In this document: in pieces, positions 8,078 to 11,690 of the stretch
How positions within the stretch are numbered: the first letter of the stretch is position 1
How the letters are laid out: every line of letters begins with the position of its first letter
From: Longimicrobiales bacterium
Lineage (GTDB): Bacteria; Gemmatimonadota; Gemmatimonadetes; Longimicrobiales; Gaopeijiaceae
NCBI GenBank assembly: GCA_965249725.1
Contig: CBDFMQ010000002.1
Span: 2,112,001 to 2,176,000, forward strand
Length of the DNA: 64,000 nt
Direction of reading: 5' to 3'
Notes under the pieces: generated by a model
Told to the model about the DNA's origin: nothing
Databases searched by the model: none
The model's input: only the letters and a program-made list of their open reading frames with translations
Made by a program: the position numbers and the translations under genes

Positions 8078-8365
8078 TTAAGATCCGTCGGGTGCGGGCC
8101 TCGGGTGGAACGTGCTGGCCACGATGCGCCATGAGCCGTCCTCCTGGCGTTCCATGACGGACAGCATCTTCCCGTACGTGGTCGTGGGCCCGTCTCGCCC
8201 GGGCACCATCTCGTGCAGGTCGAAGTCCATCCATCGGTAGGCCATGTCTCCTCGGCCCTCGATCGTGACGCTGGGGAGATCATAGTCCAGGAAGTCGAGC
8301 CCCCGGTCTCCAATGGACCGGACCATATCCTCTAGCGCCGGCCGGCCACGCGTCATCGACCCACT
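8078..8365 (-). pseudogene. 3' fragment of an NTF2-like/DUF4440 gene
   Basis: ...GSMTRGRPALEDM...IEGRGDMAY...GKMLSVMERQEDGSWRIVA; its N-terminus is replaced by antisense permease sequence. Confidence 0.6.
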
Positions 8366-8722
8366 GCGGTCGCCCTGGCTCTGGGCGTCGTCGGCATCTA
8401 TGGCGTCATCTCGTACATCGTGAGCCAACGCACCCGAGAGATCGGAGTGCGCATGGCGCTCGGGGCCGGCGGTAGCGATGTGAGCCGTATGGTCCTACGC
8501 CAAGGGATGATCCTGGCAGGCAGTGGGGTGGTCATCGGGCTGATCGTCGCGATGGGGCTCACGCGTCTGATGTCGTCGCTGCTCTACGGGGTGGAAGCCA
8601 CGGACCCGGTCACGTTCGGGGTGGTCGCGGCGGTGTTGAGCGCAGTAGCGCTACTCGCGTCCTATCTGCCGGCATTGCGCGCCTCGCGGACCGATCCCGT
8701 CGAAACGCTGCGTTTCGAGTAA
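8363..8722 (+). pseudogene. C-terminal fragment of an ABC/FtsX-like (ADOP-type) permease
   Basis: AVALALGVVGIYGVISYIVSQRTREIGVRMALGA...LASYLPALRASRTDPVETLRFE; only about 120 codons of a normally several-hundred-aa protein. Confidence 0.85.
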
Positions 8723-8724
8723 CG

Positions 8725-8753
8725 TTGACGCCGCGTGTGACAGTTTTTAGGTT
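8725..8753 (+). promoter_or_regulatory. Sigma70-type promoter of the DHOR-Rieske-porin operon
   Basis: TTGACG (8725-8730), 17-nt spacer, TAGGTT (8748-8753); AGGAG at 8784-8788; GTG at 8795. Confidence 0.7.
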
Positions 8754-8779
8754 TGCCTAAATAAATTAGGCCGACCTAA
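8747..8779. promoter_or_regulatory. Two tandem DtxR/MntR/SirR-type operator palindromes
   Basis: TTAGG-TTTG-CCTAA (8747-8760) and TTAGG-CCGA-CCTAA (8766-8779), in a sharply AT-rich patch overlapping the -10 and +1 positions. Confidence 0.8.
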
Positions 8780-8794
8780 AATCAGGAGATACGC

Positions 8795-10054
8795 GTGACG
8801 CCCATCTGGATGCGGGGAATCGTGATGGCGGGGCTGGTAGCCACCGGCGCGTGCGACATCCTGGCGCCGGATACGCCGCACGACGGTGACGTCCTGGCGG
8901 GCACCATCGACGGCATGCCCCCCGGACAGGTGCGACAGCACCTCTCCGGCGACGAGGAGTTCGCCCGTGTATTTTCCGTGGCCGACGGCCTGGGGCCGGT
9001 GTTCGTGGCGACCTCATGCGAGCAGTGCCATGTCGGCGACGCCAAAGGCCATCCGGTTTTCAACCTGACGCGATTCGGACGGTACCTGGACGGTGTCTGG
9101 GACGGTCTGGCGGCGCGAGGCGGGCCGCAGTTGCAGCATAGGGCCATTCCCGGGTATCCCGTCGAAACGGTTCCGGACGAAGCCACTGGAGTGGCACACC
9201 TCACGCCTCCGGCCGTGACCGGCCTCGGGTATCTCGACGCGGTCGACGACACCACCCTCCTGCGACTGTCGGACCCTAACGATGCGGACGCAGATGGCGT
9301 GTCCGGGCGCGTTCAGCTCCTGGAGCCCAGCGACCTCATCGTGAGCGCCCTCGCCCTCGAGGCGGGCCAGTCCCCCGACCCGGGCGCGCGGGGCACCCTG
9401 GTGGAGGGCCGCTACATCGGCCGCTTCGGGAAGAAGGGCCTTACGGTCAACCTCCTGCAGCAGGCGGTGGGGGCATACCAGCAGGACATGGGGGTGACCA
9501 GCGACCTCCTTCCCGAAGACCTTGTGAACCCGCTAGCCGGCGATCGCGCCTCGGACGGCGTGGCCGATCCGGAGGTATCCAGCGCGGTGGTGGCCAACGT
9601 GGTCTTCTACCTGAAGACCCTCAGGGCCCCGCCGCGGCGTGATGCCGACGACGCGATGGTCGTGGCGGGTGAGTCCATCTTCTCGGCGGTGGGGTGCGAG
9701 CTGTGCCATGTTCCGACCCTTCGCACGGGCCGCTCCAACCTGGCCGTGCTGGACCGGGTGGACTTCCGCCCCTACACCGACCTTCTCCTTCACGACATGG
9801 GATCTGGGCTGGACGACGGGTACACCGAAGGGCGGGCCCTGACATCGGAATGGCGGACCCCACCCCTTTGGGGCATCGGTCTCCAGGGTGCGTTCCAAGG
9901 CGGGCAAGCGTTCTTCCTCCACGACGGCCGGGCCCGGACCCTGTCCGAGGCCATCGACTTCCACGGAGGTGAGGCGACGGCATCGCGGGCGGCATTCCGG
10001 GCACTGTCGCCGGAGGACCAACTTCGCCTGATCAGCTTCTTGGAGTCCCTGTGA
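8795..10054 (+). CDS. Di-heme oxidoreductase (DHOR/thiol oxidoreductase-like) lipoprotein
   Basis: Lipobox ATGAC; CEQCH and CELCH; family motifs GLGPVF, GRFGKK, QQDMGVTS, YTDLLLHDMG, EWRTPPLWG, LHDGRART. Confidence 0.9.
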   Translation: MTPIWMRGIVMAGLVATGACDILAPDTPHDGDVLAGTIDGMPPGQVRQHLSGDEEFARVFSVADGLGPVFVATSCEQCHVGDAKGHPVFNLTRFGRYLDGVWDGLAARGGPQLQHRAIPGYPVETVPDEATGVAHLTPPAVTGLGYLDAVDDTTLLRLSDPNDADADGVSGRVQLLEPSDLIVSALALEAGQSPDPGARGTLVEGRYIGRFGKKGLTVNLLQQAVGAYQQDMGVTSDLLPEDLVNPLAGDRASDGVADPEVSSAVVANVVFYLKTLRAPPRRDADDAMVVAGESIFSAVGCELCHVPTLRTGRSNLAVLDRVDFRPYTDLLLHDMGSGLDDGYTEGRALTSEWRTPPLWGIGLQGAFQGGQAFFLHDGRARTLSEAIDFHGGEATASRAAFRALSPEDQLRLISFLESL

Positions 10055-10482
10055 AGGGCTCGGAGATGGACCGGCGAGGCTTCGTGCGTGCCATGCCGCT
10101 GGTGGCCCTCGCCGCGTGGGCTCCCACGGCGTGCGGCGGTGCGGTCTATATCGTGCCTCGGGACCTGGGAGGCCGCGTGGCCGTACCGATCGAGGTCCTC
10201 GGCGACGGGAGCGGGGCCTTTGTGGCCCACCCGTCCAGCAATCGCGCGATCTTCGTGCGCCGCAGGGCCGGGGGTGAATGGGTGGCTGTCCACGCCCGGT
10301 GCACCCACCGCGGATGCCAGCCCGAGCCGGTAGCCGAACGACTCGTGTGTCCGTGCCACGGAAGCGAGTTCACGCTGGACGGTGAACTACTGGAGGGGCC
10401 AGCTCGATCGGATCTGGCGCGACTCCCGGTCGAGCGCGTGGGCCCGGATCTTGTCATCCGCGTCCGCGAGGAGGACGCATGA
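10051..10482 (+). CDS. Tat-exported Rieske [2Fe-2S] lipoprotein
   Basis: DRRGF twin-arginine signal, PTAC lipobox, CTHRGC and CPCHGS Rieske boxes; GTGA overlap (alternative start 10066). Confidence 0.9.
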   Translation: MKGSEMDRRGFVRAMPLVALAAWAPTACGGAVYIVPRDLGGRVAVPIEVLGDGSGAFVAHPSSNRAIFVRRRAGGEWVAVHARCTHRGCQPEPVAERLVCPCHGSEFTLDGELLEGPARSDLARLPVERVGPDLVIRVREEDA

Positions 10483-11690
10483 GCGGCCGTGTGATGGGGC
10501 CGACGTTCACGATGGGTCTGGCGTTGATGGTCGTGATAGGTGCATTGGGGGGACCCCGAGAAGCGGCAGCCCAAGCCGACACTACACTGGCGCAGGAAGG
10601 TGTCTACGACCGTCCTTTCATCACTGCGGTAGGCGGCACCTCCATTGGCGGCTACGTAGAGGGCAACACCAACTGGTTCGTCGAGGACGGCATCGGCGAA
10701 GGGTTCTCCATGGAGCTACGCCGCTTCAACATCTTCCTCTACTCCTCGATCTCATCCCGAGTGCGATTCCTTTCGGAGCTGGAGTTCGAGCATGGCACCG
10801 AGGAGATCGCGCTGGAAACGGCGCAGCTGGACGTCCGGGTCCGGCCGTCGCTGGTGTTCCGGGTCGGGATCCTCCTGCCCCCCATCGGCTACCTGAACCA
10901 GAACCATGACAGCCCCAAGTGGGACTTCGTGGAAAGGCCTCTCGGCACCACCGAGATCGTCCCATCCACCCTCAGTGAGATCGGGGGCGGAGTGTACGGC
11001 AAGGTGCCGGTGGGTACAGGGGTCCTTTCATACGATCTCTACATGACCAACGGCCTGGGTGACGGCGTGGTGGAGAACGATGTCGGTCGCACTCACATTC
11101 CGGCGGGCAAGCGTGAAGAACAGTTCGCTGAAGACAACAACGGGTCGCCGGCGTTGTCGGCACGGGTCGGTTTCCGCCGGCCGGGTCGCGGTGAGGTGGG
11201 GGTGTCGTGGTATGGCGGCACCTACAACACCTTCCGTGTAGAGGGCGAGGACGTGGACGAGCGTCGGCGGGTGGACCTACTGGCCGTGGACGCTGGTGCG
11301 TCCGTGGGTCCGGTGGACATCCGGGGCGAAGCCGGGTGGGCGCGCATCGACGTGCCCGACGGACTCGTGGAGGTGTTCGGTACGCGCCAATGGGGGGGCC
11401 ATGTCGACCTCATCATGACGGTGTGGCAGCCGGCGATCGCAGACTACCCCGAAGCCAAACTGTCCGCCGGCCTTAGGCTGGAGCGGGTAGACTTCAACAC
11501 CGGAACATTCTCCAGCACCGGGGAACGCATCGGCGACGAAGTCAGCGCTCTGGTGCCCGGGTTGGCCTTCCGTCCGTCGGCCGAGACGGTCTTCCGGCTC
11601 AACTACCGGTACGCGTGGATCACCGACTTCGTGGGCAACGAGCCGGCCCGTTCGGCCGGGTGGCAACTCGGGTTCGCCACGTACTTCTAG
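10479..11690 (+). CDS. Putative outer-membrane beta-barrel/porin
   Basis: Signal peptide, amphipathic beta-strand pattern, ELEFEHG motif, C-terminal GWQLGFATYF BAM-type signal; ATGA overlap. Confidence 0.75.
   Translation: MSGRVMGPTFTMGLALMVVIGALGGPREAAAQADTTLAQEGVYDRPFITAVGGTSIGGYVEGNTNWFVEDGIGEGFSMELRRFNIFLYSSISSRVRFLSELEFEHGTEEIALETAQLDVRVRPSLVFRVGILLPPIGYLNQNHDSPKWDFVERPLGTTEIVPSTLSEIGGGVYGKVPVGTGVLSYDLYMTNGLGDGVVENDVGRTHIPAGKREEQFAEDNNGSPALSARVGFRRPGRGEVGVSWYGGTYNTFRVEGEDVDERRRVDLLAVDAGASVGPVDIRGEAGWARIDVPDGLVEVFGTRQWGGHVDLIMTVWQPAIADYPEAKLSAGLRLERVDFNTGTFSSTGERIGDEVSALVPGLAFRPSAETVFRLNYRYAWITDFVGNEPARSAGWQLGFATYF

Follow-up and report, generated by a model that had tools for sequence, protein, structure and literature searches.

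The operon and its features

We analyzed a 64,000-nucleotide stretch of the Longimicrobiales bacterium assembly GCA_965249725.1 (Gemmatimonadota; contig CBDFMQ010000002.1, positions 2,112,001 to 2,176,000 of the forward strand), hereafter the window, which carries a three-gene operon between positions 8725 and 11690. The genes, which we call the trio, encode a di-haem c lipoprotein of the DHOR (DUF1111) family, a Rieske lipoprotein and an outer-membrane porin, and they lie behind a candidate promoter overlapped by two putative operators. A preliminary description, made from the sequence alone, had reported three genes joined by GTGA and ATGA overlaps; the open reading frame coordinates and both overlaps (GTGA at 10051–10054 between DHOR and Rieske, ATGA at 10479–10482 between Rieske and porin) were borne out. 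The features are the following:

8725–8782, + strand: candidate sigma-70 promoter region by consensus match; both operators overlap it
8725–8753, + strand: candidate promoter as read by eye, TTGACG-17-TAGGTT
8747–8760: putative MntR-type operator 1, TTAGGTTTGCCTAA, same pattern as the site of DR2539, a manganese (Mn) sensor
8753–8782, + strand: candidate promoter from the scanner, TTGCCT-18-TAAAAT
8766–8779: putative MntR-type operator 2, TTAGGCCGACCTAA, 19 bp beyond operator 1
8784–8788, + strand: Shine-Dalgarno AGGAG, preceding the GTG start at 8795 (read from the sequence)
8795–10054, + strand: DHOR/DUF1111 di-haem c lipoprotein gene, 419 aa, GTG start at 8795
10051–10482, + strand: Rieske lipoprotein gene, 143 aa, with a further in-frame ATG at 10066
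10479–11690, + strand: OprO/P-like outer-membrane porin gene, 403 aa, C-terminal Phe

The genome (4.16 Mb, 95.8% complete) holds one DHOR gene, and the nearest named homologs are from Longimicrobiales, Gemmatimonadota. At that completeness, imelysin (PF09375), FTR1 (PF03239) and NRAMP genes were not found in it.

The three proteins of the operon

The first protein matches PF06537 (DHOR) with an E-value of 1.5e-61 and 208.9 bits against a cut-off of 22. It has CxxCH motifs at 75–79 and 301–305 (CEQCH and CELCH) and a lipobox Cys20, in agreement with its preliminary description as a DHOR-type lipoprotein with two such motifs. Both motifs were present in 71 of 76 homolog frames, the remaining five being cut or frameshifted. 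The model (predicted local distance difference test, pLDDT, 93.4) is a two-domain di-haem fold, the fold of bCcP, MauG, BthA, MbnH-like proteins and HZS-gamma (Z 14.7–16.7, root-mean-square deviation 2.9–4.2 Å over 219–256 residues, 18–23% identity); the DHOR searched alone gave no match in the PDB sequence search. His390 (His371 in mature numbering) aligns with the distal Met position of bCcP and is invariant (49/49), which suggests a bis-His haem 2 with His390 as the likely distal ligand. Also invariant among trio DHORs are Q93, Q95, E105, P108 and R74, close to haem 1, plus W334 and W340. The literature covered shows no reaction for DUF1111/DHOR proteins.

The second protein matches PF00355 (Rieske, E 3.9e-13). 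With a twin-Arg signal (DRRGFV), a lipobox-like Cys and the cluster boxes CTHRGC and CPCHGS, it is of the disulfide-containing bc/b6f type and, instead of a separate anchor helix, it is a lipoprotein, as expected from the earlier reading of a Tat-exported Rieske lipoprotein. Among 76 homologs the disulfide Cys pair and the Ser are present in all (76/76); the Tyr is kept in 48, and the other 28, our copy among them, have Phe. The twin-Arg motif was read in 65 and the lipobox in 58. The top solved relatives of the profile are b6f/bc1 Rieske proteins, the best being 5CXM, which we take to be the stand-alone cyanobacterial lipoprotein PetC3. Rieske proteins with the disulfide Cys and Ser/Tyr are of the higher-potential type, which fits Mn(III/IV) better than chelated Fe(III). 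This protein is predicted to be a periplasm-facing one-electron carrier.

The preliminary description had found no cytochrome b at the locus, and the only copy in the genome lies ~530 kb away (C3:2650062–2650973), with neither a Rieske nor a cytochrome c1 gene adjoining and a gene for a 169-aa exported-looking protein coming after it. Cytochrome b was also absent from the neighbour families common to at least three of 80 homologous loci (see below). This orphan cytochrome b was considered as the Rieske partner and found no support, with close relatives in just 3 of 28 trio genomes; any match at E<=1e-10 was found in 12 of these 28 and in 6 of 16 comparison genomes.

The third protein has no Pfam or NCBIfam match, and its profile gave no match in the PDB sequence search; distant homologs match PF07396. 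Its model (pLDDT 82.8) is a 16-strand porin with a long L3 and a C-terminal Phe, closest to OprP (2o4v; Z 28.2, rmsd 3.6, 320 aligned), so that the beta-barrel proposed at the outset can now be described as OprO/P-like. Seven residues (E61, E100, E102, E104, E109, E113 and H143) are 97–100% conserved across 78 trio porins, and R82, R128, R153, R229 and R333 are among the conserved residues as well; in OprO/P porins an arginine ladder gives anion (phosphate) selectivity. Conservation was 0.64–0.65 in the extracellular loops, 0.68 in the strands and 0.45 in the periplasmic turns.

Conservation of the trio and related porin modules

Within the phylum (301 genomes), 87 genomes have a match to the porin, and 28 beyond our own have one at E below 1e-50. 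A scan of GTDB with the porin profile confirmed 475 stretches, of which we kept the best 80, a selection that favours close relatives and in which kin are not independent. These come from Gemmatimonadota, Bacteroidota (Cytophagales, Flavobacteriales and Sphingobacteriales), Balneolaceae, Rhodothermales, Calditrichaceae and Melioribacteraceae, and include the cultured type strains Adhaeribacter aerolatus and Pontibacter saemangeumensis. Gene order could be assessed in the 72 loci with at least 2 kb upstream: DHOR is present in 71, and DHOR and Rieske in the same order in 70, the exceptions being L127 (DHOR-porin) and L105. This gene-neighbourhood survey had been set beforehand as a test of the trio. 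The three genes are one conserved unit.

In L105 the porin is cut short and severed from the operon, with an insertion-sequence-like gene upstream, and one genome (L038/L066) has its DHOR broken into two frames. Another trio, with 62% porin identity, sits on a 2.8 kb contig binned as archaeal (L129, Nitrosopumilaceae) and probably mis-binned. Among the matches listed for 20 further regions, several overlapping the 80, we found a more distant trio clade with about 38–41% porin identity.

As the preliminary description had stated, imelysin is absent: a profile search that detected its positive controls found no imelysin, flavin mononucleotide (FMN)-binding or ApbE protein in 100 loci. One of the 28 trio genomes has imelysin, at separate DHOR loci. 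Related porins, in turn, were found with other partners. The 20 regions around distant porin/imelysin matches, of which representatives were scanned, are mostly operons of porin, FMN_bind protein, membrane protein and ApbE. Such operons, with a small membrane protein, occur on distant porin homologs in L139–L146, L148, L149, L151, L152 and L155–L157, and may be a flavin-based outer-membrane metal-reduction module. L153 is arranged as DHOR-porin-imelysin-ferritin, and L150 unites porin, imelysin, DHOR, FMN_bind protein and ApbE. Since related porins occur in DHOR-imelysin operons (L150, L153 and L175), the pairing of porin and DHOR is not unique to the trio, and its distinctive parts are therefore the Rieske protein and the Mn-type control described below. 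The acidic and His residues of the porin are mostly common to 15 FMN/ApbE-type and 3 imelysin-type porins, while the extracellular loops differ in these other modules. Because the related porins pair either with DHOR and imelysin or with FMN-binding protein and ApbE, the Rieske protein probably replaces the flavin carrier rather than imelysin.

DHOR genes are present in 102 of the 301 phylum genomes. It had been assumed that they usually occur with imelysin, which proved too narrow: in 20 other DHOR regions sampled, with neighbours scanned in part, one was a trio, 7 lay near a SusD-family gene and 3 of the 19 non-trio regions had imelysin. In a quick tree the trio DHORs fall into two clades with support, of 19 and 7 rows, that share one supported group with the imelysin-type clade; branching within the group is unresolved, so a single origin of the trio DHORs is neither shown nor excluded. 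Locus L171 is labelled 'other' in this tree although it carries imelysin. Another DHOR clade, separate from these, is found near SusC/SusD-like pairs, in many cases together with a small lipoprotein that has no annotation (L178, L180–L182 and L184–L186).

Putative MntR-type control

The two palindromes are the sole matches to their pattern in the window, even at one mismatch (0.21 expected; 2 of 100 shuffles gave 2). The exact TTAGG-N4-CCTAA occurs at 3 sites in the 4.16 Mb genome, the third immediately 5' of a DtxR-family/FeoB operon. Counted as exact boxes there are four: two at the trio operon, one ahead of the MntR-2xFeoA/FeoB operon and one at C3:2922996 tied to no gene. Across loci the consensus is TTAG-N6-CTAA, frequently in tandem, 18–25 bp apart. 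The check for an operator upstream of DHOR homologs, also suggested beforehand, looked for a box no more than 300 bp from the DHOR start: of 71 loci, 13 have one without mismatch, 36 with at most one mismatch and 52 with at most two, against 0.001, 0.005 and 0.046 expected per searched interval. The exact TTAG-N6-CTAA pattern is present in 59 of the 80 loci, compared with 7 for the reversed control.

The pattern agrees with the site of the Deinococcus MntR, DR2539, and not with the iron DtxR box. According to bioRxiv 10.1101/2024.02.12.579695, this Mn sensor of D. radiodurans binds ATTTTAGTCGCGCCTAAAAT at mntH and coordinates metal through Asp11, Glu102, Glu105 and His106. A regulator encoded in one trio operon has 5ZR4, 8PVT (DR2539), ScaR and SloR as top solved relatives, above IdeR and DtxR. 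The top NCBIfam model is the Mn-dependent MntR NF047407, under its cut-off. In 37 regulator rows, with a few loci counted twice, Glu stands at the Glu102 position in all, and the Asp11 position is Asp in 27, Asn in 4 and unreadable in 6. Our genome has a stand-alone MntR (contig C3, about 2799315–2800004) whose EDYL and AEAERLEH motifs make an Asp11/Glu102-type primary site. Hence, the DtxR-family operators noted at the promoter do exist, but operator and neighbouring regulators assign them to the MntR/DR2539 (Mn) subtype and not to the iron DtxR/IdeR subtype. Judging from these motifs, the operon is likely under an MntR-type repressor and shut off when Mn(II) is plentiful.

The boxed FeoB operon of the same genome (C2:148719–154357; locus L033, 5720–11358) encodes a DtxR-family protein with twin FeoA domains, followed by FeoB, and is divergent from a P1B heavy-metal ATPase. 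Its DtxR-family protein has an N-terminal hydrophobic stretch and a seemingly degenerate recognition helix.

Metal importers near the operon or behind its box

Importer counts refer to the available flanking DNA of the 80 loci, many of them short. MntH, FeoB or an ABC-3 importer lies beside the trio in 21 of the 80 (MntH in 12, FeoB in 7 and an ABC-3 binding protein in 2), MntH being the commonest; DtxR-family genes were also found in 21 of the 80. One more locus has an ABC-3 operon 3' of the trio, and another a multicopper oxidase-ZIP pair 5' of it. The other boxed genes of trio genomes include those for MntH, MntR-2xFeoA/FeoB, ABC-3 and multicopper oxidase-ZIP systems, with FeoB as the sole boxed importer of our own genome; relatives also have a box at two TonB receptor genes. 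Genes for ferritin, Suf or siderophore synthesis were not seen behind the box in any of the 20 boxed loci read. Some matches to the box pattern, lying ahead of ArsR-like or response-regulator genes, are probably false. The preliminary description had seen neither an ABC nor an FTR1 permease; FTR1 was indeed not found, as said above, whereas inner-membrane importers belong to the system, given the 21 loci and the same box ahead of our own MntR-2xFeoA/FeoB operon.

A twin-FeoA MntR with FeoB2 makes up the Mn transport operon of Porphyromonas gingivalis, according to PMC4805248. Because the neighbours are MntR-type regulators, MntH, MntR-linked FeoB, ABC-3 and ZIP importers, Mn appears from gene content to be the most likely metal of the module, with Fe possible.

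The multicopper oxidase behind the MntR-type box is a small two-domain protein paired with a ZIP-like transporter (L050, 2848–5697; L210, 1551–3015). In two genomes, a boxed ABC-3 metal importer faces away from an operon whose first gene (L207, 708–1442; L208, 1595–2374), of ~250 aa, is unannotated and has no NCBIfam match. Just 5' of our operon, at window positions 8078–8722, an ADOP-family permease is reduced to its last 100 aa (profile positions 705–803) and accompanied by an opposite-strand DUF4440/SnoaL piece; these remnants suggest rearrangement beside the operon.

Predicted docking of the DHOR on the porin

The structure and complex predictions that the preliminary description had called for gave both the porin fold and a docked porin-DHOR pair. 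Porin, Rieske and DHOR were folded jointly and the DHOR alone was scored. The porin-DHOR complex scored 0.65, with 0.00 for the best of 3 controls; among the calibration pairs, 116 of 157 solved ones and 2 of 215 mismatched ones attain the score mark, counts that are only rough for a three-chain job. Runs agreed in at least 95% of contacts, with a partner pLDDT of at least 84. All listed contacts are between porin and DHOR. On the porin side they involve the long loops L1 and L4–L8 and, on the DHOR side, the N-terminus, the surroundings of haem 1 (53–71 and 96–104) and residues 347–352. In the model topology these loops are at the end of the barrel away from the short turns and the C-terminal Phe, which is the extracellular face. 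The DHOR is thus predicted by the model to be an extracellular lid on the porin, with haem 1 above the pore mouth. The Rieske protein is not named in the modelled interface, but as the DHOR alone was scored this says nothing on Rieske binding.

The lipoprotein starts may point to different destinations. Asp or Glu at +2 to +4 after the lipid Cys was found in 61 of 70 DHORs and in 0 of 71 Rieske proteins, and SusD-family proteins of the phylum have starts similar to those of the DHORs. According to PMC5080379, negative charge after the lipid Cys marks surface export in Bacteroidetes. The acidic start of the DHOR, which the Rieske protein lacks, fits sorting of the DHOR to the surface and of the Rieske protein to the periplasm.

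A proposed manganese-scavenging gate and its alternatives

Taken together, we tentatively favour reading the operon as an MntR-repressed, Mn-scavenging redox gate made of a surface di-haem lid, an acidic porin, a Rieske donor and an inner-membrane importer. When Mn(II) is plentiful, the Mn(II)-loaded MntR-type repressor would keep the operon off, and scarcity would turn it on. At the pore mouth, the di-haem lid outside the acidic porin would then turn oxidised or ligand-bound Mn into Mn(II), and the Rieske lipoprotein would be the likely supplier of electrons on the periplasmic side. After passing the porin, Mn(II) would be taken into the cytoplasm by the MntR-controlled importer of the respective host (MntH, MntR-linked FeoB, ABC-3 or ZIP). 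What we infer here is that the substrate is Mn, that the chemistry runs in the direction of reduction and that electrons take this route over the outer membrane. In the preliminary description the operon was an envelope module coupling Fe/Mn redox change to outer-membrane passage; a redox module of the envelope that serves metal uptake still fits best. The pairing of porin and DHOR has proved not to be exclusive to the trio.

Several observations weigh against the Mn gate. Its weakest link is the electron route: with the DHOR outside and the Rieske protein inside, no haem wire spans the membrane, and no conserved membrane electron donor was found. Nor is the Rieske protein always required, as L127, with its DHOR immediately 5' of the porin, lacks one. 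Regarding the lid, the complex job had three chains and custom alignments, unlike the calibration set; the predicted interface residues are conserved at 0.65, compared with 0.64 for the remaining extracellular loop residues; the DHOR starts resemble the canonical K-(D/E)2 export signal loosely, without matching it; and in Escherichia coli an Asp at +2 signals retention in the inner membrane. Regarding the metal, 59 of the 80 loci have no importer in the available DNA, RND/CusA-like pumps are frequent neighbours too, in 12 loci, as are P1B ATPases, in 8, and among NCBIfam models the ABC binding proteins match the Zn model AztC best, always below cut-off. FeoB and NRAMP are able to carry Fe, and DR2539 also responds to Fe(II) (PMC3327659).

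One could argue instead that the lid is a peroxidase, a MauG/BthA-like DHOR that would use H2O2 at the surface either to break organic ligands that hold Mn, so that Mn(II) is freed at the pore, or to remove peroxide at times when antioxidant defence based on Mn runs short, with the Rieske protein as an accessory reductant. Such a lid would dispense with a trans-membrane electron wire, and it would suit the structural relatives of the DHOR, all at Z 14.7–16.7, as well as the multicopper oxidase-ZIP pairs behind the same box. Moreover, the conserved residues near haem 1 (Q93, Q95, E105, P108 and R74) and W334/W340 resemble a peroxidatic pocket and hole-hopping Trp residues. However, the haem of bCcP and MauG has His/Met or His/Tyr ligation, unlike haem 2 of the trio DHORs, which by alignment, not coordinates, looks bis-His. 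Divalent ions are what the partner importers carry, and peroxide scavenging on its own leaves the dedicated acidic porin unexplained. We consider the peroxidase unlikely.

Rather unlikely, in our view, is that the system serves iron, or Fe and Mn equally, so that an Fe(II)-loaded DtxR-family repressor would control a lid reducing Fe(III) for uptake by FeoB or NRAMP. The imelysin-type DHORs, nearest relatives of those of the trio, belong to operons (Pseudomonas aeruginosa PA4370–PA4373 and Vibrio cholerae VC1264–VC1266) that PMC3143127 describes as Fur-regulated and iron-linked. The Fe(II) response of DR2539, the boxed FeoB of our genome and the two boxed TonB receptors also speak for iron. Yet the regulators have Asp/Glu where DtxR/IdeR have Met/Cys; our genome also encodes two Fur-family proteins and a further FeoB without box; and both the prevalence of MntH among the importers and the gene content behind the box speak against iron.

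The porin might also be a plain Mn(II) channel: the DHOR would be a non-catalytic metal-binding lid, or periplasmic, and the haems and Rieske cluster a sensor, a gate or merely co-regulated. The acidic lumen residues common to porins with other partners and the Rieske-less L127 are compatible with it, and a precedent is MnoP of Bradyrhizobium japonicum (MnoP-MntH), cited in PMC6011978 as a Mn-specific outer-membrane channel. Nevertheless, all three partner sets of this porin family (DHOR and Rieske, DHOR and imelysin, FMN-binding protein and ApbE) are redox proteins, and two haems plus a Rieske cluster are strictly conserved despite their cost in iron, making the plain channel improbable. Finally, the genes might lie together by chance or be left over from a respiratory bc complex, which the solved relatives of the Rieske profile might bring to mind. 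Such an origin is very hard to reconcile with a gene order kept across phyla (70/72 loci), the absence of cytochrome b from the families common to at least three loci and a Rieske protein that is a lipoprotein with no anchor helix.

Little is known of how Gram-negative bacteria bring Mn across the outer membrane or draw on oxidised or chelated Mn. The porin-lid model offers a concrete test for outer-membrane Mn uptake and for DUF1111/DHOR function, and the presence of the operon in cultured type strains makes genetics feasible. It is possible, if doubtful, that with the trio an outer-membrane redox gate for Mn can be recognised for the first time, in which a surface di-haem lid reduces Mn(III/IV) over a cation porin, as one of three interchangeable modules (Rieske, flavin/ApbE and imelysin) on one unnamed porin family, and that it also explains the role of DUF1111 in imelysin iron operons.

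Comparison with known systems

Surface lipoprotein lids over barrel transporters are known from SusCD and BtuBG, and a barrel-associated cytochrome from MtrAB. The predicted capping of the porin by the DHOR resembles the former, whereas the trio barrel is a 16-strand porin with no plug and no TonB box. A conduit of the MtrAB kind has a multihaem wire inside a wide barrel; here there are two haems, and the modelled contacts are on loops only. The DHOR shares its fold with bCcP, MauG, BthA and HZS-gamma and differs from them in the His at the haem-2 distal position, the lipid anchor and the predicted docking on a porin. The Rieske protein has the cluster boxes and disulfide Cys of the bc1/b6f subunit and is not encoded beside cytochrome b.

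MnoP-MntH is under a Fur-family regulator, and we know of no haem or Rieske partner of MnoP. As outer-membrane channels linked to Mn uptake, MnoP and the trio porin would be alike by role. With the DR2539 regulon and PgMntR-FeoB2, the trio loci share the operator pattern, the Asp/Glu primary-site ligands, a PASVTGM-type recognition helix and MntH and FeoB as targets; the accessible parts of those sources describe inner-membrane importers and no outer-membrane redox module. Distant homologs of the trio porin occur in operons of the ApbE/FMN-binding extracytosolic redox type (PMC8238504, in whose accessible part the word 'porin' was not found), while the trio has neither FMN-binding protein nor ApbE.

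Literature searches, made in a library with few subscription papers, turned up no description of the trio and nothing on the Thermus MntR. The closest likeness is to the imelysin-DUF1111 operons. The DHOR family is the same, with imelysin-type and trio DHORs in one supported group, and the Gemmatimonadota imelysin operons encode a porin homologous to that of the trio (hhalign 98.5%, E 2.7e-15). In contrast to them, the trio is without imelysin, has a Tat Rieske lipoprotein and carries MntR-type boxes over its promoter, the imelysin operons being Fur-regulated. We conclude that the trio is a variant of the DUF1111 metal-uptake loci, distinguished by its Rieske protein and its Mn-type control.

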